Origin: Candidatus Omnitrophica bacterium UBA6215
Lineage (GTDB): Bacteria; Omnitrophota; Gorgyraeia; Pluralincolimonadales; Pluralincolimonadaceae
Assembly (NCBI GenBank): GCA_002421665.1
Contig: DISH01000006.1
Coordinates: 153,784-217,783, forward strand
Direction: 5' to 3'
Length of the DNA: 64,000 nucleotides
Positions 12,067-35,515 of this stretch are shown piece by piece. Position numbers and translations under genes: made by a program. Each line of letters begins with the position of its first letter. The first letter of the stretch is position 1. A model generated the notes under the pieces. That model did no database searches, was not told where the DNA came from, and saw nothing but the letters and a program-made list of their open reading frames with translations.

Positions 12067-12079
12067 GGGAACGTGTCCC

Positions 12080-17545: not shown

Positions 17546-18472
17546 TCATTGCCTTATAGCCAATCCTATACATACCGCCATCTGGCCCGAGATTTCCTTA
17601 AGCGCCTTGGAATCCACTTTCGGCGAAATAACAAGTTTGGCCGTAGGGTCCCATACTATCATCTCTAACCCGAAAGCCTGCTTAAGCCTTTCGTTGACCG
17701 CCGTATCCTTGGCCCCTCCGCCGCTTATATATATCCCGTCTATCCCCTTGCCGAACTGGTTCTCATAATAATCGAAAGACAGCCTTATCTGGGTCTCGAG
17801 GGCATCTATACTCTTTATCTCAACCGGGATATCGCGTGCAAAATTAAGCGTTTCATCCTTTAATATGCAAACGTTCGTCATGCTGGCGCCGATATTCAGC
17901 AAAGCTACCGTCCTGTCCTTTCCGGCACCCGCATTGTTGAAAATAAATGAATTTGTTACGGCTATGGAATCGCAATCAACGGCTTCGGGCGCTATGCCTG
18001 CATCGTTCATGTAGGTTATATACTCACCCACGAGGTCCTTCTTTGCGGCTACTATAAGCACTTTTACCTTGCCGCCCTCGACCTTGCCGTCAATCATCTG
18101 CGCGTCTATATATACTTCATTTATACCAAAAGGTATGTACTTCTCAGCCTCGAATTGCAGCGCGGAATGCAATTCGTCTGAACTCAACTTGGGGAAAAGC
18201 ACCTGCCTGACAACTACAGATTGGCCCGAGACCGATATTACCGCTTTCTGTATCTTCGTCTCCTGCTTCGCAATGAAACGCTTAAGGGCAGCGGCAACGC
18301 TTTCCCTGGAACGCTCTCCCTCTATCTGTTCGATGGAAAAACGGTCGATCTGCATGGCGCCCGTCTTTTGTTTTGAGATGAAAACGGACTTTATTGAGGA
18401 GGTCCCGATATCCAGCGCGACCTTATTCTTTGACGCGCCCAGGTTCAAGAAGGGTATTTTTATCTCTTTCAT
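17546..18472 (-). CDS. pilM: Pilus assembly protein PilM (actin-like ATPase fold)
   Basis: 308 aa. DIGTSSIKSV and GGGA motifs (FtsA/MreB-like fold). Confidence 0.85.
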   Translation of the reverse strand: MKEIKIPFLNLGASKNKVALDIGTSSIKSVFISKQKTGAMQIDRFSIEQIEGERSRESVAAALKRFIAKQETKIQKAVISVSGQSVVVRQVLFPKLSSDELHSALQFEAEKYIPFGINEVYIDAQMIDGKVEGGKVKVLIVAAKKDLVGEYITYMNDAGIAPEAVDCDSIAVTNSFIFNNAGAGKDRTVALLNIGASMTNVCILKDETLNFARDIPVEIKSIDALETQIRLSFDYYENQFGKGIDGIYISGGGAKDTAVNERLKQAFGLEMIVWDPTAKLVISPKVDSKALKEISGQMAVCIGLAIRQ

Positions 18473-20095: not shown

Positions 20096-20099
20096 AAAG

Positions 20100-21371
20100 A
20101 TGAAAAACAGAAAAGGTTTCATGCTGATATTCTCTTACGCTGTGGTCAGTGTCATAGTTATTCTGGTAGCAGCCTATGTGGCGCGCAGCATAAATGAGAT
20201 AAGGATGGCCCAGCGCGAGAAGAATTCCGCAGCGGCGCTTTATGCGGCGGAAGCGGGCATAGATTACGCTTTCGACTGGCTTAAATCTCAGGGTACTCCC
20301 CCGTCGGGAACCTCATCTTTCAGCGTGACCGGCGGCCCGTCCCTCACTACGGGGACCTATTCGGTGGTCATCGATCCCAACGACTCAAATCCTACGTCAT
20401 ATTCCAAGAGATATAACATAATAGCGACGGGCCAGTGCGGGGACTCCGTCCGGACGGTGAACCTGGAAGTAACCCAGGATAACTTTTCCAGACACGTATG
20501 GTTTACGGATTCCGAGACCTATGACGGGGCATCGGTATGGTTCGTTACCAATGACAGCCTTAACGGGCCTGTCCATACCAACGGTAGATTCAACATTTCC
20601 GGAGATCCGTGGTTCGGGGACGTTACGAGCGAGAGCGGTTCCTCGATCAATTATATGCACGGAGGTCCGCCCAATGACAACCCCACTTTCGAGGAAGGAA
20701 TAGACTTCAACGTGGAATCCAGCGAAATGCCGACAAGGGCAACCAGCCTCAGGAACGCCGCGTCAAGCGGGGGGATGAGGCTTTACGGGCAGACCACGAT
20801 AGTACTTAACTCGAACGGAACGATGAATGTTACAAATTTCAACGCCGGGTACAATAACACCAATATGGCCCTCCCGGCGAACGGAGCTATATTCGTCGAG
20901 AACAGGATAGTCAACAGGAGGCTTGTGGAATACGGAAATGTTACCGTAAGCGGGACCCTTGACGGAAGGCTTTCGATAGGCGCCAACAATAATATTAATA
21001 TCGGAGGCAATATTACTTACAGCGATGCCTCCGGCGACGATATGCTCGGCCTGATAGCCGAACAGGACCTGGTCATCCTTCAGAGTTCCTGTCCTACCAA
21101 CGGGAACCTTACCATACAAGCCAGCATGATGGCAATGTCGGATGCCTTCTATCTCGATAACTGGACTTCATCCATGAAGGGAACATTGAATGTCCTGGGA
21201 GGTATAATCCAGAAAGAGCGCGGTCCGGTCGGTACCTTCAACACCTACACAAACTCCAAGGCAAGCGGCTTTACGAAGAACTACGTATACGATGAGAGGC
21301 TGAGAACGACTCCTCCTCCTTTCTTCCCAACAACCGAAGACTTTATACCGGTATCCTGGAGGGAACAATGA
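20100..21371 (+). CDS. PilX-like large minor pilin with beta-helix-like C-terminal domain
   Basis: PilX_N-like start KGFMLIFSYAVVSVIVILVAAYVARSINEIRMAQREKNSAAALYAAEAG. C-terminal 250 aa are rich in N-x-T/G repeat strands (NVTNFNAGYNNTN...GANNNINIGGNITYSD). Confidence 0.65.
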   Translation: MKNRKGFMLIFSYAVVSVIVILVAAYVARSINEIRMAQREKNSAAALYAAEAGIDYAFDWLKSQGTPPSGTSSFSVTGGPSLTTGTYSVVIDPNDSNPTSYSKRYNIIATGQCGDSVRTVNLEVTQDNFSRHVWFTDSETYDGASVWFVTNDSLNGPVHTNGRFNISGDPWFGDVTSESGSSINYMHGGPPNDNPTFEEGIDFNVESSEMPTRATSLRNAASSGGMRLYGQTTIVLNSNGTMNVTNFNAGYNNTNMALPANGAIFVENRIVNRRLVEYGNVTVSGTLDGRLSIGANNNINIGGNITYSDASGDDMLGLIAEQDLVILQSSCPTNGNLTIQASMMAMSDAFYLDNWTSSMKGTLNVLGGIIQKERGPVGTFNTYTNSKASGFTKNYVYDERLRTTPPPFFPTTEDFIPVSWREQ

Positions 21372-21754
21372 CAAAGAACCAAATAATAATAGCCGGAGCC
21401 TTATTTATACTGATCGTGCTAATCGCCGCGCCTTTATGGAAATCCGGGAAGGAACCGGTCATTCCCCAGGCAAACCCTGAGGTCCGGGAAACCGTACCGC
21501 AGGCAGGGATCTTCGAATTGCCACCCTCCGGCGGGAACAATACGGAAGGGCCCGTAATGACAACAACGGTGACAACTGCCGTAAACGCCGACCAGCCGCG
21601 TAAAAAAGCTCCCAATAAGGCAAGACATATTGAGGAAGAACCGCAGGACAAGGGTTACGATTCAATAGACCCGGGCCTCGTGCCTAACCCGCCTAAATCA
21701 CCTTCGCCCGAGATAATAAGGAATATGCAAAAGAAGGGTATAGTACTCTACTAA
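21368..21754 (+). CDS. Hypothetical membrane-anchored Pro-rich protein, last gene of minor-pilin operon
   Basis: N-terminal TM helix (IIIAGALFILIVLIAAPLW), then a Pro/Thr-rich low-complexity region. Overlaps the PilX-like gene by 4 nt. Confidence 0.45.
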   Translation: MTKNQIIIAGALFILIVLIAAPLWKSGKEPVIPQANPEVRETVPQAGIFELPPSGGNNTEGPVMTTTVTTAVNADQPRKKAPNKARHIEEEPQDKGYDSIDPGLVPNPPKSPSPEIIRNMQKKGIVLY

Positions 21755-21767
21755 ACTACGCAGCCGC

Positions 21768-22208
21768 TTATTCTATTGGATTGCCGGACGCGTCATCGAC
21801 CCTTATCACGCCTGATTCGTCCACAAAGAATACCCTCACGCCCGTTATATTGGGAGTTACAGGCGCAGCCGTGCACGTATACTGGTTAGCGCTGACCAAA
21901 GCATAGGTAAACGTATAACCCTGTTTCGTGCCGCTCCCGAGCGTGGAATCTATGTAAGGAGGGTTATCGCTGCTTAATGTCACCAGGTCCGGCGGATATG
22001 TAGAAGGGTTCTGCATGGCGCGGTAACTTTCACATGCCGTGCTGATAGTTCTCATGGATGCTATGGCCGAAGATTCATTCGCGTTAGCGCGCGCCCTTAT
22101 AAAACCAGGTATGGCTATAACGGCCATGATGGTAATGATCGAGACGACTATCATTATCTCTACCAGAGTAAAACCTCTCCTTGCAGAAAACTCGGGCTTC
22201 ATAGGCAA
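21768..22208 (-). CDS. Type IV pilin paralog B (prepilin)
   Basis: RRGFTLVEIMIVVSIITIMAVIAIP. Probable ATG start at 22202 (MKPEF...). C-terminal TKQGYTFTYALVSANQYTCTAAPVT is shared with paralog C. Confidence 0.8.
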   Translation of the reverse strand: MPMKPEFSARRGFTLVEIMIVVSIITIMAVIAIPGFIRARANANESSAIASMRTISTACESYRAMQNPSTYPPDLVTLSSDNPPYIDSTLGSGTKQGYTFTYALVSANQYTCTAAPVTPNITGVRVFFVDESGVIRVDDASGNPIE

Positions 22209-22243: not shown

Positions 22244-22281
22244 CGAAAAAGAAAGAGCGGGAATCAACTTCCCGCTCTTTC
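22244..22281 (-). terminator. Rho-independent terminator after pilin paralog C
   Basis: Stem aaagagcgggaa / ttcccgctcttt with a 5-nt loop. Followed on the minus strand by cuuuuucgcuu. Confidence 0.6.
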
Positions 22282-22306
22282 CATTAAACCTTTTTACGCC
22301 CGAATA

Positions 22307-22738
22307 TTATTCGATCGGGTTACCTGCGGCGTTGTTAAGCCTTAAAACGCCCGATTCATCGACGAAGAACGTCCTCGAACCGGTGACGTTCGCCGTTACA
22401 GGCGCAGCCGTGCACGTATACTGGTTAGCGCTGACCAAAGCATAGGTAAACGTATAACCCTGTTTCGTGCCACCCGCCAAAGTCGCATCGATGTACGGGG
22501 GAGTAGCTGATCCCAAAACCGCCAAGTTGGCCGGATACGTTACCGGGCTCTGTGCAGCTCTGAAGCTTTCGCAAGCCGTGCTGATTGTACGAAGCGAGGC
22601 TATGGCAGCCGCTTCGTTAGCGTTGAGCCTTGCGCGTAGTAAGTTGGGTATCGCTATCGCCGCTAATAGAGCTATAATTGCGACTACGATCATGATTTCA
22701 ACGAGCGTAAAACCCTTCCTTCTTACTAATCTACTCAT
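22307..22738 (-). CDS. Type IV pilin paralog C (prepilin), probable major pilin
   Basis: Leader MSRLVRRKG | FTLVEIMIVVAIIALLAAIAIP. Strong SD (aaggagggg). Own promoter and own terminator. Confidence 0.8.
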   Translation of the reverse strand: MSRLVRRKGFTLVEIMIVVAIIALLAAIAIPNLLRARLNANEAAAIASLRTISTACESFRAAQSPVTYPANLAVLGSATPPYIDATLAGGTKQGYTFTYALVSANQYTCTAAPVTANVTGSRTFFVDESGVLRLNNAAGNPIE

Positions 22739-22823: not shown

Positions 22824-24035
22824 CTATTTAGCGACCACCTGGATCAGTTTAACTATGGGCAGGAACATAGATACTACTATACCCCCGACAACTATACCGA
22901 GAAAAGCGATTATAAGCGGCTCGATAAGGCTTGTCAGCCCGGAGACCGCGGCGTCAACTTCGCTCTCGTAGAAGTCCGCGATCTTACTGAGCATCTCCTC
23001 GAGCTTACCGGTCTGCTCTCCCACCGATATCATCCTTGTCACCATGGGCGGGAATACCTTGCTTGCCGCCAGAGGCTGTGCTATGGATTCGCCCTCTTTA
23101 ATGCTCAATTTCGTTTGTATGACGGCCATCTCTATGACCTTGTTTCCGGACGTCTTGCCGACTATCTCCAGTGCGGTCAGTATGGACACACCGCTTTTTT
23201 GGAGCGTGGAAAGCGTCCTGGCAAACCTCGCGACCGCCACTTTCCGCAACAACGGCCCGATCACGGGGATCTTGAGCAGCAACCTGTCCCAGGCCAACGC
23301 ACCCTTCTCTGTCTTTATCAATTTAGAAAGAATGAATATAAATGCGCCGAGAGCGATGATCACGATCAGTATCCATTTCCTTAAAATGTCGGATATGGCT
23401 ATAAGTATAAGTGTCGGCACGGGAAGGGAAACGCCTATCGTAGAGAATATGTTCTTGAACGTCGGCACCACAAAGATTATCAGGAACATCGTGATCGCTA
23501 TGGCCATGAATATTACTACCGCCGGGTATATCAGGCTGGATTTCACCTTCCTGACAAGCGCAATGGTCTTCTCCATGTATATAGCGACCCTGTCGAGTAT
23601 CTCATCAAGGTCGCCGCTTGATTCTCCGGCGCGGACCATATTGATGAAGAACGGCGAAAATACGTTCGGCTGCTTGCTTAAAGATTCCGAAAGGCTCAAG
23701 CCCCCTTCCACGTTGTCCCGGACTTTCCTGACTATATTCTTGAAGCCCGCCCTCTCCATCTGGTCCTGCAGTGCGTCGAGCGCGCCTACAAGGGGAATGC
23801 CCGCGTCAACCATGGTGGCGAGCTGCCTCGAGAAGATGACGAGGTCCTCCGGCGATGCCTTGTCACCCCCTATCGACATCGAGGCCTTCGCCTTCTCCCT
23901 GACTTCCTCAATAGAGATGATGGTAAGTTCTTTCTGCCTAAGGACATCGACAAGGGACGCGCTGTTAGCCGAATCCATAACGCCGCTAACGGCTTTGCCG
24001 TCCTTGTCCCTGGCAGTGTACCTGAAATTGGGCAA
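22824..24035 (-). CDS. pilC: Type IV pilus platform protein PilC (GspF family)
   Basis: 403 aa. Two T2SSF repeats and three TM segments. NFRYTARDKDGK start is typical. Confidence 0.85.
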   Translation of the reverse strand: MPNFRYTARDKDGKAVSGVMDSANSASLVDVLRQKELTIISIEEVREKAKASMSIGGDKASPEDLVIFSRQLATMVDAGIPLVGALDALQDQMERAGFKNIVRKVRDNVEGGLSLSESLSKQPNVFSPFFINMVRAGESSGDLDEILDRVAIYMEKTIALVRKVKSSLIYPAVVIFMAIAITMFLIIFVVPTFKNIFSTIGVSLPVPTLILIAISDILRKWILIVIIALGAFIFILSKLIKTEKGALAWDRLLLKIPVIGPLLRKVAVARFARTLSTLQKSGVSILTALEIVGKTSGNKVIEMAVIQTKLSIKEGESIAQPLAASKVFPPMVTRMISVGEQTGKLEEMLSKIADFYESEVDAAVSGLTSLIEPLIIAFLGIVVGGIVVSMFLPIVKLIQVVAK

Positions 24036-24036
24036 T

Positions 24037-25749
24037 TTATTCCTCCGAGGTAACCCTCAAGACTTCTTCAACGGTAGTATTCCCCAGGGCAAGGTTCTCA
24101 AGCGCCGCAGCCCTGAGCGTAAGCATCCCTTTCTCTTTTACGGCATAATCTTTTATCTTATCGCTGTGCACCCTGTCAAGTATCATCTCTTTTATCTTAT
24201 CATCTATTATAAGGTTTTCCAGGATGGCGAACCTGCCGAAGTACCCGGTCTTGTTGCATTTGGCGCAGCCTTTCCCCTGATAGAATACGGCTTTGCCCTT
24301 TTCGGTATAGCCTATCCTGTCTAAAACCTCCTTCTTTATCTCCACCGCTTCCTTGCAATTCGGGCAGACACGTCGCATAAGCCTTTGCGCGCAGATAAAG
24401 ACCACGCTGGAAGCGACAAGGAACGGTTCGACACCCATATCTATAAGCCTGGTTATAGCGCTGGAGGCATCGTTGGTGTGGAGAGTGGACAATAGCAGCT
24501 GTCCGGTCAACGAAGCTTTTATGGCGATATCCGCCGTTTCGAAGTCGCGGATCTCGCCTACCATCACTATGTCCGGCGCCTGGCGCAGGAATGCGCGAAG
24601 GCCGTTCGCAAATGTCAGCCCTATCTCGGGTTTGACCTGTACCTGGGTTATGCCCATCAGCTCATATTCTATCGGGTCCTCTATCGTCACTATGTTCTTT
24701 TCGGGCGTATTCAGTATATTGAGTATGGAATAAAGCGTGGTAGATTTACCGCTTCCCGTAGGACCGGTGACAAGGAACATTCCGTAAGGTTTGGATATGG
24801 CCTCCTTGAGCTCCTCAAGAGTCTTAGGCAAAAAACCCAATTTCTCGGGCGAGACCTTTATGCTTTGTTTATCGAGGACTCGGCATACGACCTTTTCCCC
24901 GTGGACCAACGGAAGCGTCGAGACGCGGAAATCTATCTCTCTTTCATCCATCCTTACCTTGAACCTGCCGTCCTGAGGCAGGCGCCATTCCGTGATGTCC
25001 ATGTCAGACATGATCTTGAGCCTGGTCAATACCGCCGCCTGGTTCGACTTAGGAAGATGCGAGAACTCGGTAAGCGCACCGTCTATCCTGTAGCGTATGC
25101 GCATGTCTTTCTCGAGGGGTTCTACATGTATATCGGAAGCCCTCCTCTTGAGCGCCTCGCTGACAATGACATCGACCATCTTCAGTATAGGCGCTTTCTG
25201 GCTTTCAATGGCAAGCTCAGATACGTCGAACCTCTCCTCGTCCTCGCTGACGGACATGACCTCGACGTCCTCTGAACCGACATCCTGGATGATCTTGTTT
25301 ATCGAAAGGGTCTCTTCCCCGTAATAGGCGGATATGGCATCCCTTATGTCCTTGTCCGTGGCAAGGACAGGGTCTATCTCATATTTAGTCAATATCTTAA
25401 GGTCATCCAGCGCGAATATATCCAGCGGGTCCGACATGGCAACGGTCATCCTGCTGCCTATCTTGGATACGGGTATTACATGATAAAGCCGGGTTATCTT
25501 TTCAGGGACAAGGGATATTATCTCCTTGTCTATCTTGTACTTTGACAGGTTTATCGGGGTTATGCCGAGTTCCTGGCTGAATATGGAAAGCAGCTCGTTC
25601 TCGTTGGCCAGGCCTTTCTCCACGAGTATCTTAGTAAGGCTGCCTCCCTTTTCGTGCTGGGTCTTTATGGCCTCGTCGAGCTTCTCCTTGGTAACGACGC
25701 CTTTGTTCACCAGGACCTCCGCTATCTTATCCCTAAGGCTTTTTGCCAT
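24037..25749 (-). CDS. pilB: Type IV pilus extension ATPase PilB/MshE-type, paralog 1, with N-terminal MshEN (c-di-GMP-binding) motifs
   Basis: 570 aa. Tandem MshEN motifs KIAEVLVNKGVVTKEKLDEAIKTQ, spacer HEKGG, SLTKILVEKGLANENELLSIFSQ. Walker A GPTGSGKSTT. Tetracysteine CPNCK...CAKC. Confidence 0.85.
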   Translation of the reverse strand: MAKSLRDKIAEVLVNKGVVTKEKLDEAIKTQHEKGGSLTKILVEKGLANENELLSIFSQELGITPINLSKYKIDKEIISLVPEKITRLYHVIPVSKIGSRMTVAMSDPLDIFALDDLKILTKYEIDPVLATDKDIRDAISAYYGEETLSINKIIQDVGSEDVEVMSVSEDEERFDVSELAIESQKAPILKMVDVIVSEALKRRASDIHVEPLEKDMRIRYRIDGALTEFSHLPKSNQAAVLTRLKIMSDMDITEWRLPQDGRFKVRMDEREIDFRVSTLPLVHGEKVVCRVLDKQSIKVSPEKLGFLPKTLEELKEAISKPYGMFLVTGPTGSGKSTTLYSILNILNTPEKNIVTIEDPIEYELMGITQVQVKPEIGLTFANGLRAFLRQAPDIVMVGEIRDFETADIAIKASLTGQLLLSTLHTNDASSAITRLIDMGVEPFLVASSVVFICAQRLMRRVCPNCKEAVEIKKEVLDRIGYTEKGKAVFYQGKGCAKCNKTGYFGRFAILENLIIDDKIKEMILDRVHSDKIKDYAVKEKGMLTLRAAALENLALGNTTVEEVLRVTSEE

Positions 25750-25753
25750 GGCC

Positions 25754-27463
25754 TTATTCCTGTTCTCCCAGCGTAACGCGAAGGATCTCTTCCAATGTCG
25801 TGATGCCCTCGAAGACCTTTCTCAATCCTGACTCCCTCAAAGTGACAAGTCCCGCCCTCCTGGCCGCTTCATATATCTGGTTCTCGTGGGCTCTCTTCGC
25901 TACAAGTTCCCTCAGCTCCGCGTTCATCGCGACGGCTTCGATGAGCCCTATCCTGCCCCTGAAACCGGTTTTAAAACAGTAGTCGCATCCTTTGCCTTTA
26001 TAGAATTTTGCATCGACCCCTGCGGGTATCTTTATCTTCAACTTTTCAAGCATGGACTTGTGTATCTCCTGCGGCTCCTTGCAGCGCGGACATACCCTCC
26101 TCACGAGCCGCTGCGCGGCGACAAGCGCAACAGATGAGCTGATAAGAAAAGGCTCGACCCCCATATTGACCAGTCTCATTATGACCCCGGTAGCAGTATT
26201 GGTATGCAAAGTGCTCAGGACCAGATGGCCCGTAAGGGCGGCCTTTATGGCTATATCAACGGTCTCGAGATCCCTTATCTCCCCTACCATTATTATGTTA
26301 GGGTCCTGCCTGAGTATCGAACGCAGGCAGGCCGCGTACGTAAGACCTATCTCGGTATTTATATTGACCTGGTTTATCCCCGGCAAAAGATACTCTACCG
26401 GGTCCTCAACCGTAACAAAATTCTTTTCGGGTACATCTATGCTTTTTAGTATGGAGTAAAGCGTTGTCGTCTTGCCCGAACCGGCCGGGCCGCAGACAAG
26501 TATCATGCCATGCGGCCTCTTCGAGGCCTTCTTCAACTCCTCGAGGGGCTCCTTTTCGAACCCGAGTTTTTCTATATCGAGCATAGCCTGGGATTTATCG
26601 AGGATCCTGAGAGCGACCTTCTCGCCGAAAGCTGTAGGTACGGTCGACACCCTGAAGTCCACCTCCCTGTCCTGCACCCTTATCTTGAACCTTCCGTCCT
26701 GGGGAAGGCGGCGCTCTGCTATATTAAGATTGGACATTACTTTTATCCTGGATATCATCGCCGACTGTATGGAGCGCGGCAATGACTGCGCCTCCCTGAA
26801 GATCCCGTCAACCTTATACCTTATCCTCAGGCGGTCTTCCATCGGTTCGATAAGTATGTCGCTCGCGCGCGATTTGGTTGCATCAAGGACGACTGCCGAC
26901 GTCAGCTTGACCACGGGAGTGTCTATGGCCGCATCCTTAAGGTCATATGGACTCTCGTCATCCTTCCTCATGGATATGAGCTCTATATTCGTCTCTTTGA
27001 CCAGGTCCTCGATGGCAGACGTCGCCTGGCTTCCATAATGCTGTTCGATAGCCGCCTTTATATCGTCTGAGGTCGTTATGATAGGGCTTATATCCATGCC
27101 GGTCACGGTCTTTATATCATCCAACGCGAAGACGTTAAGCGGATCCGACATCGCAACCGTCAGGATATTACCCATCTTGGAAACGGGTATTATCTGGTAA
27201 TTAACGGCTATCTTCTTGGGAATGAATTTGGATATTTCGGGATCTATCTTGAATTTTGAAAGGGATATGGGGGGTATCCCAAGCTCCTGGCTTAGTATCG
27301 CCAGGAGGTCCCGCTGGTTTATCGCGCCCTGGGAGACCAGAATATCCCCCAGAGAACCGCCTTTTTCCTTTTGCACCTGGAGGGCCTGGTTAAGCTTATC
27401 TTCGGATATTATGCCCTTCTTTATAAGTATCTCGCTTAGCCGTTCCTTTATACCAGATGGCAT
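25754..27463 (-). CDS. PilB/MshE-type ATPase paralog 2 with N-terminal MshEN motifs
   Basis: 569 aa. ERLSEILIKKGIISEDKLNQALQVQ, spacer KEKGG, SLGDILVSQGAINQRDLLAILSQ. Walker A GPAGSGKTTT. CPRCK...CDYC. Confidence 0.85.
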   Translation of the reverse strand: MPSGIKERLSEILIKKGIISEDKLNQALQVQKEKGGSLGDILVSQGAINQRDLLAILSQELGIPPISLSKFKIDPEISKFIPKKIAVNYQIIPVSKMGNILTVAMSDPLNVFALDDIKTVTGMDISPIITTSDDIKAAIEQHYGSQATSAIEDLVKETNIELISMRKDDESPYDLKDAAIDTPVVKLTSAVVLDATKSRASDILIEPMEDRLRIRYKVDGIFREAQSLPRSIQSAMISRIKVMSNLNIAERRLPQDGRFKIRVQDREVDFRVSTVPTAFGEKVALRILDKSQAMLDIEKLGFEKEPLEELKKASKRPHGMILVCGPAGSGKTTTLYSILKSIDVPEKNFVTVEDPVEYLLPGINQVNINTEIGLTYAACLRSILRQDPNIIMVGEIRDLETVDIAIKAALTGHLVLSTLHTNTATGVIMRLVNMGVEPFLISSSVALVAAQRLVRRVCPRCKEPQEIHKSMLEKLKIKIPAGVDAKFYKGKGCDYCFKTGFRGRIGLIEAVAMNAELRELVAKRAHENQIYEAARRAGLVTLRESGLRKVFEGITTLEEILRVTLGEQE

Positions 27464-27478: not shown

Positions 27479-27925
27479 CTATTTTTTGTAGAATTTATCT
27501 ATAGATTGCTTTATATCCGTTGCGGTAGATACGAATATCTGGATAGAACAGTTCGTAACCAGTTCTATATCCTCTATAGCCTGGGTGTTGAGCGGATCGG
27601 CCATGGCTATTGTTACGGTATTGCCTATTTTGTCGATGGGTATCAGGCAATATTGGCGGGCAACGTTCTCCGGGACCATCTTTATGGCTGCTTCATCCAT
27701 GTCATAATTGGACAGAGGCAGGTACGGAAAACCGTACTGGACGGTGATGGCCTGGGCGATCTGCTCTTCGGTAACATAACCTAATCCGGCGAGTATCTGC
27801 CCGAGCAGTCCTCCCTTCTCTTTCTGGACCTTTAGGGCCTCATCCAGCTGGACCTGTTTTATAACCCCTTTTTCGAGGAGCAGCTGCCCTATTGTCTTCG
27901 TTATAACGCGTCTGGCTGAGCTCAT
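27479..27925 (-). CDS. Stand-alone MshEN + GSPII (T2SSE_N) domain protein with no ATPase domain; putative c-di-GMP receptor/adaptor
   Basis: 148 aa. TIGQLLLEKGVIKQVQLDEALKVQ, spacer KEKGG, LLGQILAGLGYVTEEQIAQAITVQ. Continues with a GSPII-like fold that aligns to the PilB paralog-2 N-terminus. Confidence 0.7.
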   Translation of the reverse strand: MSSARRVITKTIGQLLLEKGVIKQVQLDEALKVQKEKGGLLGQILAGLGYVTEEQIAQAITVQYGFPYLPLSNYDMDEAAIKMVPENVARQYCLIPIDKIGNTVTIAMADPLNTQAIEDIELVTNCSIQIFVSTATDIKQSIDKFYKK

Positions 27926-27934
27926 CTTCCCCTG

Positions 27935-29002
27935 TTATTTCCTGAAAAGCCTGTCAAGGTCGTCGGGATCGCTGCTGCGCAGTATCGCGTCCTCATAAGA
28001 TATCAGTTTCCTGCTGTACAGTTCGAAGAGGGTCTGGTTCATCGTCCTCATCCCCTCCTTCTGGCTCGTCTGGATCACCGAATAAAGTTGGTGCGTCTTC
28101 GCTTCCCTTATGAGGCTGCGGACCGCTGGAGTTGCTATAAGCACCTCGGTTGCCAGTACCCTCCCCTGGCCGTTCGCCTTCGGTATAAGCTGCTGCGCCA
28201 TAATACCAAGCAGCACGAAAGAAAGCTGGACCCTTACCTGCTGCTGCTGGTGTGAAGGAAAGACATCGATGACCCTGTTTATAGTCTGGACGGAATCTGA
28301 GGTGTGGAGAGTAGAAAAGACCAGATGGCCCGTCTCGGCGATATCAAGCGCCGCCTCGATAGTCTCGAGGTCGCGCATCTCACCGATAAGTATGACGTTA
28401 GGATCCTGCCTCAACACGTGCTTTAGCGATTGCGCAAAAGACTGGGTATCGCTTCCTACTTCTCTCTGATCGACCAGGGCCTTCTTGTTCTTATGGACAT
28501 ACTCTATAGGGTCCTCTATTATGACTATATGGCAATTCCTCTCGGAATTTATTTTATCGACCATTGAGGCGAGTGTCGTCGACTTTCCGCTTCCGGTCGC
28601 TCCCGTGACAAGCACAAGCCCCCTGGGCCTTTTGCAGAGGTCTTCGGCAACATTTAGCGGCAGACCGCATTCTTCGAAATTCATTATATGGAGAGGCAGG
28701 AGCCTCACAGCCGCTCCGGTATATCCCCTCTGTACGAATACATTGACCCTGAAACGGCCCAGGCCTTCGATGCCGAACGAGACATCAAGTTCCATCTCGC
28801 GCTCAAACTTCTCTATCTGCGCCGGTTTGAGCATGCTGTATGCAAGCCTCTTAGAATCTTCTGCGCCAAGAGGCGGGAATTCCGTAGGCACGAGTTTCTC
28901 ATCTATCCTTAATTGCGGCGGGGAAGAATATGAGATATGAAGGTCTGACGCGCCCTTTTGGACCATCAGTTTAAGCAATGACTCTATCTGGACGTTAACC
29001 AT
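27935..29002 (-). CDS. pilT: Twitching-motility retraction ATPase PilT
   Basis: 355 aa. GLVLVTGATGSGKSTT Walker A. AIRNLIRE-like motif (AVRSLIRE). PilT size, lacking the N-terminal domain of PilB. Confidence 0.9.
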   Translation of the reverse strand: MVNVQIESLLKLMVQKGASDLHISYSSPPQLRIDEKLVPTEFPPLGAEDSKRLAYSMLKPAQIEKFEREMELDVSFGIEGLGRFRVNVFVQRGYTGAAVRLLPLHIMNFEECGLPLNVAEDLCKRPRGLVLVTGATGSGKSTTLASMVDKINSERNCHIVIIEDPIEYVHKNKKALVDQREVGSDTQSFAQSLKHVLRQDPNVILIGEMRDLETIEAALDIAETGHLVFSTLHTSDSVQTINRVIDVFPSHQQQQVRVQLSFVLLGIMAQQLIPKANGQGRVLATEVLIATPAVRSLIREAKTHQLYSVIQTSQKEGMRTMNQTLFELYSRKLISYEDAILRSSDPDDLDRLFRK

Positions 29003-29016
29003 TGAACCTCCTTAAA

Positions 29017-30462
29017 TTATGAGATGACCAGATTTTTGCCGCGCGATTTAGCTTCATTGAGCCCGGACGTTGCCTTATTTACGAGCTCCTGCGCGGTAAC
29101 TCCGTCAATAGGGTTCTCGCTCACACCCCCGCTTACGGTAACAAAATTCCTTGGATAACCCTGGCCTCCCGATATGCCGAAAGCCTCAACCCTTTGCTTC
29201 AGGGCTTCGGCTATGGTATTCGCCTGTTTCTTGTTCTTCTCAGGCAATATGACCGCGAACGTGTCCCCGCTTAGTCTTCCGACCCTGTCAACTTCAGTAA
29301 CGTTCGACTCAATGACCTTGCCTATCTTCTTTATGGTCTCTTCCGAGGCGAGTTCCCCATTTATATCCCTGTAAAGGTTAAGATCATCTATATTGAATAT
29401 AAGAAAAGAACACGGCCGCTGGTACAGGACCGCCCTTTTTATCTCCTCTTCAAGGCGGTTCATTATGAATTTCTCGTTATAAAGCCCGGTCAGTTCGTCT
29501 TTAATGGCAAGTTCCTTTGCCTTCGCGGTAAGCAATTCATTCTCGACGGCAATGGCTATCTGTTTGGAAAAAAGCTTTATGAGCTCAACGTCATCTTCCT
29601 TGAATTCGAAATCGGAATCGGCATTTCCGTAGCTGAGCATGCCGAATCCTACGCCATGCGCCATTACCGGGGAGAGGATACAGTTCTTAAGGTCGAAGAA
29701 CTTCAGGAATTCCTCCATCTCCGATGACAACCTTGAACGCCTGTCTATAACGGCTATCTTGCTCTCGGCCAGAAGCTTGCCGAGGTAACCCACCCCCCTC
29801 TTAAGCTTGAAAGACAGGAGGCTTTCCTTGAGATTGTGGCTGGCCTTGATCGCCAGGGTATCCTTCTCCTCGCTAAGCATAACAAAGACCGAATCATCGT
29901 CGGAAAGCTGGGCTATTTTATCTATTACTATCTTTATGGTCTCCTCGAGGGGGGATCCTTGTGTTATAAGGCTGCTTACCTGCAAAAGGCTGGAAAGGAC
30001 AAGGACCTTTTTGCTGATCTCAACGTTTATCTCCTTGGTCCTCTCTCCGTATGACCTGAGCTCATCCATGTTCTCGCGTATCCTGCGGGTCAGGACATTG
30101 AGCGTGGAACCGAGATCACCTATCTCATCCTCGCTCCTGACGTTAATATTGCTGGAGAAATCCCCCTTGGCTATATCCTTGGCCTTGAGGGCCATATCTA
30201 TTATCGGAGAGACTATGTCGCGGACTATCTTGAAACCGAGGAGCGCTATTATTATAGTTATTACGAGGACGGAAGAAACGTCTTTAAGCTCTACATTGGG
30301 GTCGCCTATAAGGTTAAGGAAAGGGAATATGTAGTTCAGGAACAGGTATACACATATTGCCATCGGTATGAGGGACATAAGGACGAAGGCAACCGTAAGC
30401 TTGTAACGCAAACCTGCGGGGACCAGTGACAGCTTTTTAATAAATCCTGTCATCTTTATCAT
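29017..30462 (-). CDS. Membrane HAMP-GAF protein with degenerate GGDEF domain (SGDTF; I-site lost)
   Basis: 481 aa. Two N-terminal TM segments. HAMP (IAKGDFSSNINVRSEDEIGDLGSTLNVL). GAF. GGDEF fold in which the active-site motif is RLSGDTF instead of GG[DE]EF, and the RxxD I-site position reads TEVD. Confidence 0.75.
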   Translation of the reverse strand: MIKMTGFIKKLSLVPAGLRYKLTVAFVLMSLIPMAICVYLFLNYIFPFLNLIGDPNVELKDVSSVLVITIIIALLGFKIVRDIVSPIIDMALKAKDIAKGDFSSNINVRSEDEIGDLGSTLNVLTRRIRENMDELRSYGERTKEINVEISKKVLVLSSLLQVSSLITQGSPLEETIKIVIDKIAQLSDDDSVFVMLSEEKDTLAIKASHNLKESLLSFKLKRGVGYLGKLLAESKIAVIDRRSRLSSEMEEFLKFFDLKNCILSPVMAHGVGFGMLSYGNADSDFEFKEDDVELIKLFSKQIAIAVENELLTAKAKELAIKDELTGLYNEKFIMNRLEEEIKRAVLYQRPCSFLIFNIDDLNLYRDINGELASEETIKKIGKVIESNVTEVDRVGRLSGDTFAVILPEKNKKQANTIAEALKQRVEAFGISGGQGYPRNFVTVSGGVSENPIDGVTAQELVNKATSGLNEAKSRGKNLVIS

Positions 30463-30486: not shown

Positions 30487-30515
30487 AGTATACTCTTAAC
30501 TAAATTAAGTGTCAA
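30487..30515 (-). promoter_or_regulatory. Consensus sigma70 promoter for the HAMP-GAF-GGDEF gene
   Basis: TTGACA, 17 nt, TATACT, then SD aagggag and the ATG at 30462. Confidence 0.55.
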
Positions 30516-30521
30516 ACATAT

Positions 30522-32156
30522 TTATCTAAATTCGATGAACTGCCAGGGCAGGTCCTCTTCTAACCCGCGCTCTCTCAATGAATAAGATTCATGGTCCAAA
30601 CCTGAGTCGCTGAAAGCACGCATCCACCTCTGAAAATCGAAATACTCCCTCCAGCTGTCGAATTTTGAGCCGTTTTTCCACGCAGAATATATTGCCCTGG
30701 AGAGAGACCTGTCACCTCTGGCCAAAACAGCCTCTATATAGCTCATCTCGGCATCATGGAAATTGAACCTGACACGGCTCCCTTTCGCCTTATCCCTGAT
30801 ATAACGCTGCCTCCTTAGGGCCTCCTCAAAGGGTATCATGGGTTTCCGCTCGAAACGCGTATGGGGCTTTGGAACGAATATGGATACCGAAGCGTTTATC
30901 TCCGCAGCACGTCCGTCCACCCTCTTCTTTACCTCGGATATCTCCTTCGCCAGGGAAACCATGGCATCAAGGTCGGAATCGTCCTCTCCGGGCAAACCTA
31001 TCATGAAATACAGCTTGACCCTTCGCCATTTATTCCTGAACGCCTGGTAAGCGCATTCTTTAAGCGCATCGACCGGGACGTTCTTGTTTATCGCCTTCCT
31101 CATCTTGTCGCTGCCTACCTCGGGGGCGAACGTAAGCCCGGTATGCCTTCCGGAAGTCAGCTCAAGAGGAAAAGAGCTCGTCATCTCCTCCGCCCTGAGC
31201 GACGGGAAAGATATGCTGACAGCCTTATCCCGAAAAGATTGCGTCAATGATCTTATTATCTCCATTATCTGAGGATGGTCCCCGGAAGAAAGCGATACCA
31301 GAGATATCTCATCATAACCGGTATTCCTGTAAGTCTCTTCGGCTATCTTTAAGACCTTTTCCATTGAGCGGAAACGGTTAGGCCTGTATATCGCGCAGGC
31401 CTGGCAGAAATTGCACGCCCTCCTGCAGCCGCGCATCACTTCTACCTGGATCCTGTCATGTACAATATCTATGAACGGAACAACGGGCTTCACCGGAAAA
31501 TAAGCGTTATCCAGGTTTGCAACGGTCCTCTTCTTCACTTTTGACGGGAAGACAGGCACATAAACCCCTTCTATACCGGAAAGCGAACGCAACATTTCCA
31601 GCCTTGGAAGGCGGTCCTTCTTCGCCTTTATGACCGCATCTACGATCTCCGGCACCGCTTCTTCGCCTTCGCCGATAAGGAAACAATCGAAGAAATCGGC
31701 GACAGGTTCGGGGTTGAACGCGCACGGGCCGCCGCCCATGACAACGGGGTCGGTTTCTGCTCGCTCGCTGCTGAGAACCGGTATTCCGGAAAGGTCCAGC
31801 ATATTCAATATGTTGGTATATGAAAGCTCATATTGGAGGGAAAAACCTACTATATCGAAATCGCCGACGGCCTTCTTCGATTCAAGGGAAAAGAGCGGCA
31901 TCCCCCGCTCACGGAGGACTTTTTCCATGTCGTGCCAGGGAGCAAATACCCGCTCGCAGGCTGTATCATCCCTGTCATTAAGGAGAGAATACAATATCTT
32001 GAGACCGAGGTGGCTCATGCCCACCTCGTAAGTATCCGGGAAACATAACGCGACCCTGCATACTATACCGTCACTGCCCTTTACGACACTGTTCCATTCC
32101 CCTCCCGTATAACGCGCTGGTTTCGTGACGCCGAGAAGTGCATCATCCGGCAGCAT
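30522..32156 (-). CDS. TIGR03960-type radical SAM protein (B12-binding-like N-domain + radical SAM core), function unknown
   Basis: 544 aa. KPARYTGGEWN start typical of the family. CxxxCxxC cluster CRRACNFCQAC. Its ATG overlaps the rodA stop. Confidence 0.7.
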   Translation of the reverse strand: MLPDDALLGVTKPARYTGGEWNSVVKGSDGIVCRVALCFPDTYEVGMSHLGLKILYSLLNDRDDTACERVFAPWHDMEKVLRERGMPLFSLESKKAVGDFDIVGFSLQYELSYTNILNMLDLSGIPVLSSERAETDPVVMGGGPCAFNPEPVADFFDCFLIGEGEEAVPEIVDAVIKAKKDRLPRLEMLRSLSGIEGVYVPVFPSKVKKRTVANLDNAYFPVKPVVPFIDIVHDRIQVEVMRGCRRACNFCQACAIYRPNRFRSMEKVLKIAEETYRNTGYDEISLVSLSSGDHPQIMEIIRSLTQSFRDKAVSISFPSLRAEEMTSSFPLELTSGRHTGLTFAPEVGSDKMRKAINKNVPVDALKECAYQAFRNKWRRVKLYFMIGLPGEDDSDLDAMVSLAKEISEVKKRVDGRAAEINASVSIFVPKPHTRFERKPMIPFEEALRRQRYIRDKAKGSRVRFNFHDAEMSYIEAVLARGDRSLSRAIYSAWKNGSKFDSWREYFDFQRWMRAFSDSGLDHESYSLRERGLEEDLPWQFIEFR

Positions 32157-33256
32157 TAAAAGACTTTCCTCTTATTCTTTATGCTCTCGAGGATGCCTAC
32201 ACTGCCGAGGGCCATCATAAGGAAGGAACCGCCGTATGACATGAAAGGCAGGGGCAGGCCCACGACCGGCATAAGGCCGCAAACCATGCCTATATTCACC
32301 ACCACATGGACGGCAAATACCGTTACTATACCGTAAGCCAGGGTCTTGCCGTATATATCGCTTGTTGTCTCTGCTATCCTGACGCCTTTTTCCACGAATT
32401 TGTAATACAGAAATATCAATATGGCCCCTCCCAGGAAGCCCCATTCCTCTCCAACTACCGAGAAGATAAAATCAGTATGCCTCTCCGGGAGGAAGTTCAA
32501 TTGGTTCTGTGTGCCGCTCAGCCAGCCTTTACCAAAGAGCCCGCCCGAACCTATGGCTATCTTGGACTGGATAATAGTATATCCGGCGCCAAGGGGATCG
32601 AGATTCGGGTTCATGAACACCATAAGCCTGTTCCTCTGGTAATCTTTCAGAAAAAACCAGAGTAGCGGCGCGCAGGCTAACCCGGAACCTATGAATATGA
32701 GCAGGTATTTGACCCTCGCTCCCGCTATGAGCAGCATGGTAAGAAGGACCGGCAGGAAGATAAGCGCAGTCCCAAGGTCCGGTTCCTTGAATATCAAGAG
32801 CATGGGCACAACGGCCATCGCGAACGGGATCGCAAGGGTCTTTGGATTGGCTATCTCGTCTTTAACGTCCCCTAGATATTTAGCCAGCGCGAAGATGAAT
32901 GTGATCTTGGCGAATTCCGACGGTTGGAACGCGAAAAAACCGAAATCTATCCATCTCCTGGCACCGTAACGTACATCGCCTATGACAAGTACAAGCAACA
33001 GCAGCAGGATATTTATCCCGAATATATAATAACCGAAGTCCACTATCCTCTGGTAGCCGGCCCTAAAAACGAAAAAAGCTATGATGACCCCTATTATTCC
33101 CGACTGGAACTGTTTCATGGCGAGGTTAGAGCCGGAAAGGGCGTATTTTTGGTATGAGGCGCTGTAGATCATGAACAGGCCCATGAGTATTATGGCAGCG
33201 ACTATAAATACCAGCCCGTAATCAAACTCCCCTTTTCCCTTCTGTCCGTATCTCAT
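32156..33256 (-). CDS. mrdB: SEDS glycosyltransferase RodA
   Basis: FtsW/RodA family with ~10 TM segments. Directly downstream of mrdA. Confidence 0.8.
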   Translation of the reverse strand: MRYGQKGKGEFDYGLVFIVAAIILMGLFMIYSASYQKYALSGSNLAMKQFQSGIIGVIIAFFVFRAGYQRIVDFGYYIFGINILLLLLVLVIGDVRYGARRWIDFGFFAFQPSEFAKITFIFALAKYLGDVKDEIANPKTLAIPFAMAVVPMLLIFKEPDLGTALIFLPVLLTMLLIAGARVKYLLIFIGSGLACAPLLWFFLKDYQRNRLMVFMNPNLDPLGAGYTIIQSKIAIGSGGLFGKGWLSGTQNQLNFLPERHTDFIFSVVGEEWGFLGGAILIFLYYKFVEKGVRIAETTSDIYGKTLAYGIVTVFAVHVVVNIGMVCGLMPVVGLPLPFMSYGGSFLMMALGSVGILESIKNKRKVF

Positions 33257-34977
33257 TTTAACAGGTCCGTATTGTCTTTCGTGAACTCTATGATCTTCTT
33301 CGCTATATCGGCCGCGGCCACGCCGCCGTGGCCTCCGTTCTCAACCATCACCACGAACGCAAGCTTAGGGTCGTCCGCCGGGGCAAAACCCATGAACCAT
33401 GCATGAGGGTCCCCCCGGGGCGCCTGTGCCGTCCCGGTCTTCGCGGCTATCTTCATCCCGGGGATCCTTGCCCTCTGCCCGGTGCCGGTATCGGACTCGA
33501 CTACATTCACCATGGCGGACTTTATGAATTTGACGGCATCATTCGACATCGGAATAATCCTGGGTTTCTGTGCAGTCACTTCCGTATCGCCTATCTTCTT
33601 GATAAGGTGCGGGCGCGGAGCGCTGCCTTCGGCCGCGAATATGGCCGCTACCTCCGTCATCTGCAAGGGCGTCACAAGGACATCACCCTGGCCTATAGAG
33701 AAATTTATAGTCTCTCCCTCATACCAGTTTTGCCCGCGGTTCGCTTTTTTCCAGGCCGGGTTAGGTATAAGGCCGCCGTATTCACCTGAAAGGTCGATAC
33801 CCGTAGGTTTATTGAGTCCCAACCTCTGGGCGTAATCCGAGATCACGTCAGGACCGAGTTTCCGCCCGAGATTATAGAAATACACATTGCACGAATGCGT
33901 CAGGGCATCCCCCATGTCCTGCGGGCCGTGTCCCGTAAGTTTCCAACAGTCGAATTCGCGCTTGCCGAGGAAATATGTTCCCGAGCAGACAAAAGTCGTA
34001 TGCTTCGATACCTTCTTTGTCTCGAGACCGGCAAGCGATAATATTACCTTGAATATCGATCCCGGCGGGTATTGTCCGTTTATCGTGCGGTTCAGCATTG
34101 GCGTGGACGAAGATATCATGTATCCGGATATTACATCGTTCTTTCCGGGTTCGATGAACACGTTGGGATCGAATGAGGGCGACGATGCCATGGCGAGTAT
34201 ATCCCCGGTTCTTGGGTCCATGACTACCGCAGAGGCCCTTTTACCCTCAAGGCAGTCGGCCGTATAAGCCTGCAGTTTCGCATCTATAGTTAGGGTTATA
34301 TCCCTGCCTTTCTTCTGGTTCTTGCTGCCGAGTATCCTCACCAGCCTTCCGGAGGCGTCAACCTCAAGCTGCATACCGCCATCCTCGCCCTTAAGGTACC
34401 TGTCATATTCCTTTTCTATTCCCGATCGCCCGACAAGATCGCTTACGGAATATCCGTAATCCCCGAGCCTGTCGAGCTCCGCCTTGTTGATCAGGCCAAG
34501 GTAACCTATGACATGGGCCGCCCTTTCGCCGTATATATACCACCTTATGGTCCTGGGCAGCACAAGCACTCCCGGCAGCTCCTGCTTCCTCTCCTCGATG
34601 GAAAAAGCCAGGTCTTTATCCACGTCCCCGGCTATGGTTATCGGGGCAAAGGGCGCGATATATTCTTTTTTTACTATGGACTCGACACGGGACTTTGATA
34701 TGCCCAGAGTATTAGCCAGGCCGCCGTAGGTCTTATCGGAATTCTCAACTTCCTGGGGAATTATCACCACGTCAAAAGAAAGCCTGTTATCGACCATAGC
34801 AAGACCGTTGCGGTCATATATCGTGCCCCGCAACCCAGGGAAAGGAATAAGCCTTATATGGTTATTCTTGGCAAGTGTGTGGTATAACGGCCATCTCAAT
34901 ATCTGCAGGTAGAAGATACCTGCGAGTATGCCCAGAAAAGCCACGTTGATCACAATTGAATATATCCTGCTTCGCAT
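33253..34977 (-). CDS. mrdA: Penicillin-binding protein 2 (elongasome transpeptidase)
   Basis: 574 aa. PBP dimerisation domain plus transpeptidase motifs SIFK (SxxK), SCN (SxN) and KTGTA. Confidence 0.85.
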   Translation of the reverse strand: MRSRIYSIVINVAFLGILAGIFYLQILRWPLYHTLAKNNHIRLIPFPGLRGTIYDRNGLAMVDNRLSFDVVIIPQEVENSDKTYGGLANTLGISKSRVESIVKKEYIAPFAPITIAGDVDKDLAFSIEERKQELPGVLVLPRTIRWYIYGERAAHVIGYLGLINKAELDRLGDYGYSVSDLVGRSGIEKEYDRYLKGEDGGMQLEVDASGRLVRILGSKNQKKGRDITLTIDAKLQAYTADCLEGKRASAVVMDPRTGDILAMASSPSFDPNVFIEPGKNDVISGYMISSSTPMLNRTINGQYPPGSIFKVILSLAGLETKKVSKHTTFVCSGTYFLGKREFDCWKLTGHGPQDMGDALTHSCNVYFYNLGRKLGPDVISDYAQRLGLNKPTGIDLSGEYGGLIPNPAWKKANRGQNWYEGETINFSIGQGDVLVTPLQMTEVAAIFAAEGSAPRPHLIKKIGDTEVTAQKPRIIPMSNDAVKFIKSAMVNVVESDTGTGQRARIPGMKIAAKTGTAQAPRGDPHAWFMGFAPADDPKLAFVVMVENGGHGGVAAADIAKKIIEFTKDNTDLLK

Positions 34978-34984
34978 TTAAATC

Positions 34985-35515
34985 CTATTGAGGACGGCGT
35001 CCCTCGTATACCTTCTTCTTAAATATGATCTCCCTGTAGTCGAGTTCGACAGGGGGAATAAGTGTCTCAAGCAGCCTGAATACGAACGGAGCGAGCGCCG
35101 CAGTATAAAGGGCAGTCGGCACCGAAAAGAATATCACCGCTTTATAGTACGGGAAGCCTTTGGAAGATATCAGGATATCGTATATAAGCGATACGAACAT
35201 TACGGAGAGCGCCGCGAGTATCATTTGGGCCGAAACCAGGTTCCTGTAAAGGGCCTCCTTGTACATGCCTGCAGCAAAACCCACTGCACCGAAAAGTAAA
35301 ATGACCAAAGGGTGCATTCCGGTAAAAGCTACTTTTAACAACCCGGCAGTAAACCCGCATAAGGCGCCTTTCCTTCTGTTGGAGTTCAGTGCAAAGAATA
35401 ACACGCCCACAAGCATCAACTCCGGGCTGACTCCCAACAATTTTACGTAATTATGGCAGGCGGCTTCCAATATCGACATTACGGCAAGTGTTGTAATTAT
35501 GGATAGCCAGCTCAT
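34985..35515 (-). CDS. mreD: Rod shape-determining protein MreD
   Basis: 176-aa polytopic membrane protein located between mreC and mrdA. Confidence 0.6.
   Translation of the reverse strand: MSWLSIITTLAVMSILEAACHNYVKLLGVSPELMLVGVLFFALNSNRRKGALCGFTAGLLKVAFTGMHPLVILLFGAVGFAAGMYKEALYRNLVSAQMILAALSVMFVSLIYDILISSKGFPYYKAVIFFSVPTALYTAALAPFVFRLLETLIPPVELDYREIIFKKKVYEGRRPQ

Follow-up and report, generated by a model that had tools for sequence, protein, structure and literature searches.

The type IV pilus motor operon of Omnitrophota encodes, next to its assembly ATPases, a separate MshEN/GSPII protein that has no ATPase domain. In the window, by which the whole analyzed stretch of 64,000 nucleotides from a Candidatus Omnitrophota bacterium is meant, this protein is the 148-aa product of an ORF with an ATG start (27479..27925, minus strand) and consists of one complete MshEN/GSPII domain. 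On the evidence of the alignments, it is an old, separately maintained and monophyletic paralogue that is conserved across the phylum. The strict c-di-GMP site of the pilus machine appears to reside in this protein, and we lean towards reading it as a trans-acting c-di-GMP receptor or adaptor that would belong, as a constant part, to the type IVa pilus motor module of Omnitrophota.

The genomic neighborhood of the gene is listed below, together with the evidence for each assignment.

Upstream of the GGDEF gene, minus strand: block of mreC, mreD, PBP2, rodA and a radical-SAM gene (gene order)
30487..30515, minus strand: sigma-70-like promoter match TTGACA-17-TATACT, 11/12 (consensus match only)
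29017..30462, minus strand: HAMP-GAF-GGDEF membrane protein with a degenerate GGDEF domain, first gene of the putative operon (Pfam, PleD alignment)
27935..29002, minus strand: PilT retraction ATPase, 355 aa (TIGR01420, 483 bits against a cutoff of 319)
27479..27925, minus strand: stand-alone MshEN/GSPII protein, 148 aa (PF05157, NF053729, AF2 model, orthologues, dN/dS)
25754..27463, minus strand: PilB1, 569 aa (PF00437 and PF05157; TIGR02538 at 660.6 bits, just under the cutoff of 675.65)
24037..25749, minus strand: PilB2, 570 aa (PF00437 and PF05157; TIGR02538 at 647.9 bits, under the cutoff of 675.65)
22824..24035, minus strand: PilC platform protein (PF00482 T2SSF, two repeats)
22307..22738, minus strand: type IV pilin, tandem copy 1 (PF07963 N_methyl)
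22250..22282, minus strand: terminator-like hairpin 3' of the first pilin gene, 14-bp stem and T-run (consensus match only)
21768..22208, minus strand: type IV pilin, tandem copy 2
17546..18472, minus strand: PilM, candidate docking partner for an N1-type domain (PF11104 PilM_2, E=4.6e-46)

The genes from the GGDEF gene to pilC are separated by 14, 9, 15, 4 and 1 nt; the pilT stop lies 9 nt before the start of the MshEN gene, whose TAG stop in turn lies 15 nt before the pilB1 ATG. The sigma-70-like match is located in a 59-nt gap upstream of the GGDEF gene. Genes for PilO and the secretin are found beyond the pilins, as is pilM. No c-di-GMP riboswitch or other Rfam family was detected in the 20-34 kb region of the window. 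The catalytic motifs of PilB1 are conserved and this ATPase has its own complete N-domain, while the His box of PilB2 reads TGQ, not TGH, throughout its family. The stand-alone protein is colinear with both PilB N-termini (38% and 36% identity). The initial annotation had aligned it with the N-terminus of PilB2 and assigned a common KEKGG spacer to that pair; the colinearity holds, but the spacer is shared with the adjacent PilB1 (25754-27463), while PilB2 (24037-25749) has HEKGG.

The 148-aa protein is divided into the following parts.

27824..27895, minus strand: Motif I of the predicted c-di-GMP site, residues 11-34, TIGQLLLEKGVIKQVQLDEALKVQ (fits xLGxxLLxxGhhxxxxLxxxLxxQ)
27809..27823, minus strand: five-residue spacer KEKGG, residues 35-39 (read off the sequence)
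27737..27808, minus strand: Motif II of the predicted c-di-GMP site, residues 40-63, LLGQILAGLGYVTEEQIAQAITVQ (Gly/Gln/Leu conservation)
27482..27736, minus strand: T2SSE_N1 (MshEN_C) alpha/beta subdomain, residues 64-148 (PF05157, model, invariant columns)

Both 24-residue repeats and the spacer were thus delimited exactly as first described. PF05157 (MshEN) is the single significant Pfam family (E=1.3e-19, residues 64-147), scoring 70.4 bits against a cutoff of 23.1, and the 53-residue NCBIfam model NF053729 ("c-di-GMP_motif") matches residues 12-63 with 60.3 bits (cutoff 38). Neither the T2SSE ATPase family (PF00437) nor PilZ is among the Pfam matches, and TIGR02538 aligns with its profile positions 2-137 only (85 bits, cutoff 676). 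The protein lacks the ATPase core and is not a PilB/GspE/MshE assembly ATPase, which bears out the original description of a free MshEN/GSPII domain within a type IV pilus motor operon. Sequence searches against the PDB recovered Thermus thermophilus PilF (E=1.8e-45), Geobacter PilB (about 1e-27), Myxococcus PilB and the N-domain of Vibrio cholerae MshE (5HTL, E=2.9e-18).

In the AlphaFold2 model (pLDDT 86, pTM 0.73), a four-helix bundle precedes an alpha/beta subdomain of three strands, which includes the family signature YGFPYLPLxxY. The top Foldseek match is the complex of MshE with c-di-GMP (5HTL; TM 0.80/0.84, rmsd 2.2 A over 138 columns). The next matches are the PilB-N:PilZ complex of Xanthomonas citri (7LKM), the GSPII domains of PilF and XpsE-N. 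The C-subdomain by itself matches EpsE-N1:EpsL (2BH1) and GspE:GspL (4PHT). Residue 110, an Asp or Asn in an "ADP" or "ANP" context, may correspond to MshE D108, but this is a guess, as the PDB alignment covered residues 1-79.

To place the protein in the phylum, one genome per GTDB species was scanned. A relative was found in at least 557 genomes, from which the best 80 loci were retrieved. In these approximately 80 species-level Omnitrophota loci, the order GGDEF (degenerate)-(pilT)-mshEN-pilB1-pilB2-pilC is almost invariant. The MshEN ORF encodes 134-163 aa and is fused to an ATPase in none of them. Similarly, a large protein database contains many orthologues that are 145-152 aa long, with identities reaching down to about 60%; the named ones all belong to Omnitrophota. 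The downstream neighbor is pilB1 in 80 loci, and the upstream neighbor is pilT in 50 of 78 and the GGDEF gene in 26 of 78. The gene had been placed as wedged between pilT and pilB; the adjacency to pilB is essentially universal, but that to pilT applies to the 50 loci.

The stand-alone protein is under strong purifying selection, with a dN/dS of about 0.01 (calculated against orthologues 97-98% identical in protein, with pN 0.02 and pS 0.65-0.72, the latter near saturation). Its median identity to the window protein is 63%, compared to 67% for PilT, 58% for PilC, 56% for PilB1 and PilB2, and 43% for the GGDEF protein. In 66 of 67 loci it exceeds both PilB N-domains in conservation. The joint alignment places the stand-alone proteins in one monophyletic group with a mean internal identity of 64%. 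They share approximately 35% identity with the PilB N-domains of the same genome, which are 41-43% identical to each other, and approximately 40% with the N-domain of Geobacter PilB. A recent local duplication of a neighboring pilB N-domain, which was the sense of the initial "duplicated, amputated motor N-domain", is rejected on the basis of these identities and the monophyly of the clade. Among the best 150 representatives from a search of 1.84 billion proteins, about one third are single-domain proteins of 145-200 aa and many of the rest contain 2-7 MshEN modules in tandem, so that MshEN modules, whether free or multiplied, occur commonly in sequence space.

The published c-di-GMP site comprises two copies of the motif RLGxx(L/V/I)(L/V/I)xxG(L/V/I)(L/V/I)xxxxLxxxLxxQ joined by a 5-residue linker. 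Guanine is contacted at its Hoogsteen edge by the backbone amides of the position-3 Gly and of the residue after it, the bases are stacked against Leu residues, and the phosphate-ribose ring is bound by Gln residues. The window protein retains each of the 12 key positions of this 53-residue site, whose loss would have spoken against the initial assignment: Gly at positions 3 and 10, Leu or Ile at 2, 17 and 21, and Gln at 24 of both motifs, in total 4 Gly, 6 Leu/Ile and 2 Gln. Among 83 family members, the conservation is close to complete in motif I (G13 82/83, L27 81/83, Q34 82/83), in the spacer (G38 and G39, 82-83 of 83) and in motif II (G42 and Q63 both 83/83, position-1 Leu 81/83). The N-domains of the two ATPases differ at these positions. 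Of the stand-alone proteins, 82/83 retain both position-3 glycines, versus 0/80 PilB1 and 1/68 PilB2 N-domains; both glutamines are present in 82/83 versus 0/80 and 14/68, and all 12 key positions in 58/83 versus 0/80 and 0/68. Where motif-I position 3 is not Gly, it is T, S or N in the PilB1 family and I, S, V or A in the PilB2 family. The N-domains of PilB1 and PilB2 have thus lost the guanine-contacting glycines, which would place the strict c-di-GMP site of the machine in the separate subunit. At E≤1e-9 the NF053729 profile matches members of all three groups (67/67 stand-alone, 67/67 PilB1 and 49/67 PilB2 N-domains) and so fails to tell the paralogues apart. Discrimination was obtained at the level of single residues only, and the proposed impairment of the cis-domains is therefore based on the Gly and Gln positions.

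The site is canonical in its spacer and in the Gly, Leu and Gln positions but not in the two leading arginines of the "RLG" signature, both of which are replaced in the window protein (T11 and L40). The Leu at motif II position 1 falls within the extended (R/K/L) consensus. Motif I position 1, which is Thr in the window protein and Gln in 53 of 83 orthologues, lies outside both this and the original Arg consensus, and the equivalent residue of MshE, R9, has been described as pivotal. The consensus was widened to (R/K/L) because the GSPII-B domain of T. thermophilus PilF binds c-di-GMP with a KD of 6 nM without an arginine, with L196 at motif II position 1; its authors proposed the hydrophobic residue as a predictor of high affinity. 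GSPII-A of the same protein is a non-binder even with the consensus fully restored, and motif conservation is therefore no guarantee of binding. The stand-alone proteins also have a basic N-terminal tail with conserved R5, R6 and K10, which resembles the positive patch of MshE.

In the window GGDEF domain, aligned with PleD, GGEEF is changed to SGDTF, the I-site RxxD to TEVD, and N335, the guanine-binding residue of PleD, to R. Throughout the family of this GGDEF protein the N335 equivalent is H, R or E, and the GG(D/E)EF residues vary. The domain is probably not a cyclase and therefore may be a sensor or scaffold. A dedicated active diguanylate cyclase adjoining mshEN in the window is rejected on these residue losses, and no local c-di-GMP source is evident beside the gene, the neighboring GGDEF domain looking catalytically dead. 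Distant relatives and length variants have the following gene orders.

L086: REC-MshEN-PilB-PilB-PilC
L087: RodA-MshEN-PilB-PilB-HD_5 (HD-GYP type)-PilC
L089: short GGDEF-MshEN-single PilB-PilC-PilS-PilR
L090: GAF-PilT-MshEN-PilB
L004 (203-aa variant) and L005 (221-aa variant): GGDEF-MshEN-PilB and further genes, four-helix module duplicated
L088: MshEN outside any pilus cluster

In L086, L087, L089 and L090, MshEN and PilB are kept and the signaling partner is swapped. In the variants of 203-221 aa, only the four-helix module, which is the predicted c-di-GMP-binding one, is duplicated. A c-di-GMP-related role is favored because of the recurrent linkage to GGDEF and HD-GYP genes and the duplication of the binding module only.

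The protein could also be a structural docking subunit of the N1 type that works independently of c-di-GMP, its motif-like residues merely stabilizing the four-helix bundle. It would then provide an extra GSPII module in trans for the assembly or stability of the motor at PilM/PilC, similar to PilF GSPII-A or the XpsE N-domain. The existence of near-consensus GSPII domains that do not bind agrees with such a role, as do the Thr or Gln at motif I position 1 and a C-subdomain and YGFPYLPL junction that are at least as invariant as the motifs. In addition, multi-GSPII ATPases with 2-7 repeats are common among the relatives, and extra modules on motors are therefore normal. However, the ligand-contacting Gly and Gln residues are near-invariant although the sister PilB N-domains fold without them, and neither the variants that duplicate the binding module only nor the neighbors of GGDEF and HD-GYP type are expected of a purely structural part. 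We regard this reading as doubtful, if with a real chance of being correct.

Proximity to pilT raises the possibility that the free MshEN supplies an N1 domain to PilT, which has none of its own, and recruits this retraction ATPase to the platform or excludes it from there depending on the c-di-GMP level. In 50 of 78 loci pilT directly precedes the MshEN gene; the median distance is 9 nt, which is also the gap in the window. Against this stands that pilT is non-adjacent in 26 of 78 loci, whereas pilB is always adjacent, and that the operons of the distant relatives L086, L087 and L089 contain no pilT, which makes a role primarily for PilT unlikely. A passive sink or buffer, which would keep the level of free c-di-GMP low around the base of the pilus, as also proposed initially, would agree with a small, soluble and potentially high-affinity binder. 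This idea found no specific support and is very improbable: the T2SSE_N1 subdomain would be superfluous in a sink, yet it is highly conserved, the gene is strictly coupled to pilB in the operon, which suggests a specific partner, and there is no sign of the high expression that a buffer requires. Finally, a remnant of a disrupted third pilB, or a stop-split (MshEN)2-ATPase read through into PilB1, is suggested by the common frame of the TAG stop and the pilB1 ATG in the window and by the (MshEN)2-T2SSE proteins known in Clostridia, but is effectively refuted by the same-length unfused orthologues in about 80 species, the dN/dS value, the absence of room for ATPase remnants, and the MshEN-pilB1 gap, which has a median of 11 nt, is often negative (overlaps of 1-29 nt) and is divisible by 3 in only 25 of 80 loci, that is, at chance level, so that the in-frame arrangement in the window is coincidental and neither read-through nor a fusion by frameshift is supported.

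The receptor or adaptor role in trans, to which we give somewhat greater credence than to its negation, would work as follows. The N-terminal four-helix bundle would bind one c-di-GMP via the two 24-residue motifs, and the C-terminal T2SSE_N1 subdomain would make contact either with the base of the pilus or with the motor ATPases. The soluble protein could then serve in trans as a second-messenger-dependent adaptor or gate that tunes how the extension motors PilB1 and PilB2, and possibly PilT, engage with the PilM/PilC platform. [quoted passage not shown] Ligand binding, the identity of the partner and the direction of regulation are the parts of this scheme that we infer, and of the roles proposed at the outset that of an adaptor would fit the comparative data best. 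A bolder version, put forward tentatively as one possibility, is that the N1 domain was split off as a free subunit with the sole strict c-di-GMP site and might be a ligand-gated, exchangeable docking module that chooses between PilB1, PilB2 and PilT at PilM/PilC, possibly under the control of the degenerate HAMP-GAF-GGDEF protein.

Several known systems resemble parts of this arrangement. The MshEN domains of MshE (5HTL) and of PilB-type ATPases (Myxococcus xanthus, Clostridium perfringens PilB2, Chloracidobacterium) share the two-subdomain fold (TM 0.80-0.84 to 5HTL), the site of 24+5+24 residues including every Gly, Leu and Gln position, and the association with type IV pili. They form, however, the N-terminus of an ATPase, whereas in Omnitrophota the domain is a polypeptide of its own and the ATPases are encoded downstream of it. 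In the window protein, moreover, both leading Arg are replaced. PilF GSPII-B (8PDK, KD 6 nM; Foldseek TM 0.70-0.76) is likewise arginine-free with Leu in motif II, and likewise shares a single pilus motor with other GSPII modules. In PilF, though, the three modules are in cis with the ATPase, and motif I of GSPII-B opens with Lys rather than Thr or Gln. A comparable architecture is that of Pseudomonas aeruginosa PA3740 (MshEN-xT2SSE_N1), a small non-ATPase with MshEN_N and an N1-like subdomain that is listed among the tested c-di-GMP binders and has a motility (swarming) phenotype. Its T2SSE_N1 is described as highly divergent, whereas that of the stand-alone protein is canonical, and the literature searched reports no linkage of PA3740 to a pilus operon.

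A similar logic is known from the FimX-PilZ-PilB system of Xanthomonas and the FimX-PilB system of Pseudomonas, in which c-di-GMP receptors act in trans on non-binding PilBs. There, too, a separate c-di-GMP-linked protein touches the PilB N-domain or the motor (7LKM, PilB-N:PilZ), and FimX systems and the Omnitrophota operon both include a degenerate GGDEF protein. The receptor folds are EAL and PilZ in the former, whereas the putative Omnitrophota receptor is an MshEN protein. Single-domain PilZ adaptors such as MapZ and YcgR are small c-di-GMP receptors that bind a motility machine. The stand-alone MshEN would be comparable in its role as a small receptor, but their fold and binding mode are unrelated to it. 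Many MshEN architectures, including PA3740, have been catalogued (Wang et al. 2016), and a plain stand-alone MshEN in a pilus operon is absent from this catalogue. The initial statement that no role is established for such a protein agrees with a 2024 review of PilB cofactors, which does not mention a stand-alone MshEN protein, and with full-text literature searches, in which no functional study of it in pilus control was found in open-access and bioRxiv literature.

A non-binding PilB combined with a separate receptor is known from the FimX/PilZ systems; what is new is a putative receptor that is paralogous to the N-domain of the motor itself and is fixed throughout a phylum. What the N1/MshEN domain does in PilB-type motors has been called poorly understood, in part because this flexible domain escapes structural analysis (2024 PilB review). 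The main value of the Omnitrophota protein is that it represents a natural split version of this domain: with MshEN as a separate and extremely conserved polypeptide, ligand binding, docking partners and motor choice would become addressable in trans. If the proposed split is correct, the protein would be a natural "in trans" version of the PilB N1 domain, and a single-domain MshEN adaptor would join the known c-di-GMP effectors beside the single-domain PilZ proteins. The comparative data suggest that Omnitrophota pili may sense c-di-GMP via a separate subunit, which would provide a first handle on pilus regulation in this uncultivated phylum.

The pilus motor operon of the window lies directly downstream of an elongasome block and a radical-SAM gene. 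The genomic features considered here are:

30522-36291, minus strand: mreB-mreC-mreD-PBP2-rodA elongasome block and radical-SAM gene
29017-30462, minus strand: HAMP-GAF-GGDEF protein, first in the operon, with a degenerate GGDEF domain
22307-22738 and 21768-22208, minus strand: tandem pair of pilin genes whose C-terminal halves are almost identical
19047-21754, plus strand: convergent cluster of minor-pilin-like (N_methyl) genes

The gene order RodA-rSAM-GGDEF and onwards is conserved in most of the Omnitrophota loci examined (the window, L001 and L006-L085). Many genomes carrying the Omnitrophota-type operon (L007, L017, L018 and others) are named in their records as 'uncultured Planctomycetia/Planctomycetales bacterium' and one as 'Patescibacteria group'; these names are probably loose taxonomic labels of the respective MAGs. 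Among more distant relatives, a gene for a REC protein precedes MshEN in L086, pilB2 and pilC of L087 are separated by an HD_5/HD (HD-GYP-type) gene (11821-12861), and a single pilB is followed by pilS/pilR-like genes in L089.

The first pilin gene (22307-22738) has its own promoter-like site at 22818-22791 and is followed on its 3' side by a strong terminator-like hairpin (22282-22250). The minor-pilin-like cluster, one member of which is a 423-aa DUF4900 protein, is located on the plus strand between the pilin genes and pilMNO-secretin, and the pilus cluster is therefore split over both strands.

Variants of the stand-alone MshEN protein with 203-221 aa (P0085, P0089, P0090, P0094, P0106 and P0123) comprise two complete four-helix c-di-GMP-type modules with four motif copies, followed by a single C-terminal T2SSE_N1 subdomain, i.e., (MshEN_N)2-N1. 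The loci of two such variants are:

L004, 10001-10612: 203-aa MshEN variant
L005, 1462-2127: 221-aa MshEN variant

At one locus, L058, the usual copy upstream of pilB1 is accompanied by a second stand-alone MshEN-like ORF (12027-12479; 151 aa, 45% identity to the window protein), which lies between pilB2 and pilC. In an unclassified 'bacterium' (L088, 7001-7465), a stand-alone MshEN protein of 154 aa is encoded outside any pilus cluster, flanked by genes for a Rex-like regulator and a nucleoside-diphosphate kinase; free MshEN proteins thus occur in non-pilus contexts as well.

In the HAMP-GAF-GGDEF protein, SGDTF replaces the GG(D/E)EF motif, TEVD replaces the RxxD I-site, and the equivalent of PleD N335 is R. 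Since this position is H, R or E in each of the ~69 orthologues, the family is probably not a cyclase. The protein may be a receptor or scaffold.

The tandem pair PilB1 (25754-27463) and PilB2 (24037-25749), both on the minus strand, is conserved among Omnitrophota. Both paralogues retain the catalytic Glu as well as the Walker A/B and tetracysteine motifs. Two family-wide changes are seen in PilB2, TGH to TGQ/E in the His box and RQD to RQS/A. These substitutions suggest functional differentiation of the two paralogues or a hetero-oligomeric motor.
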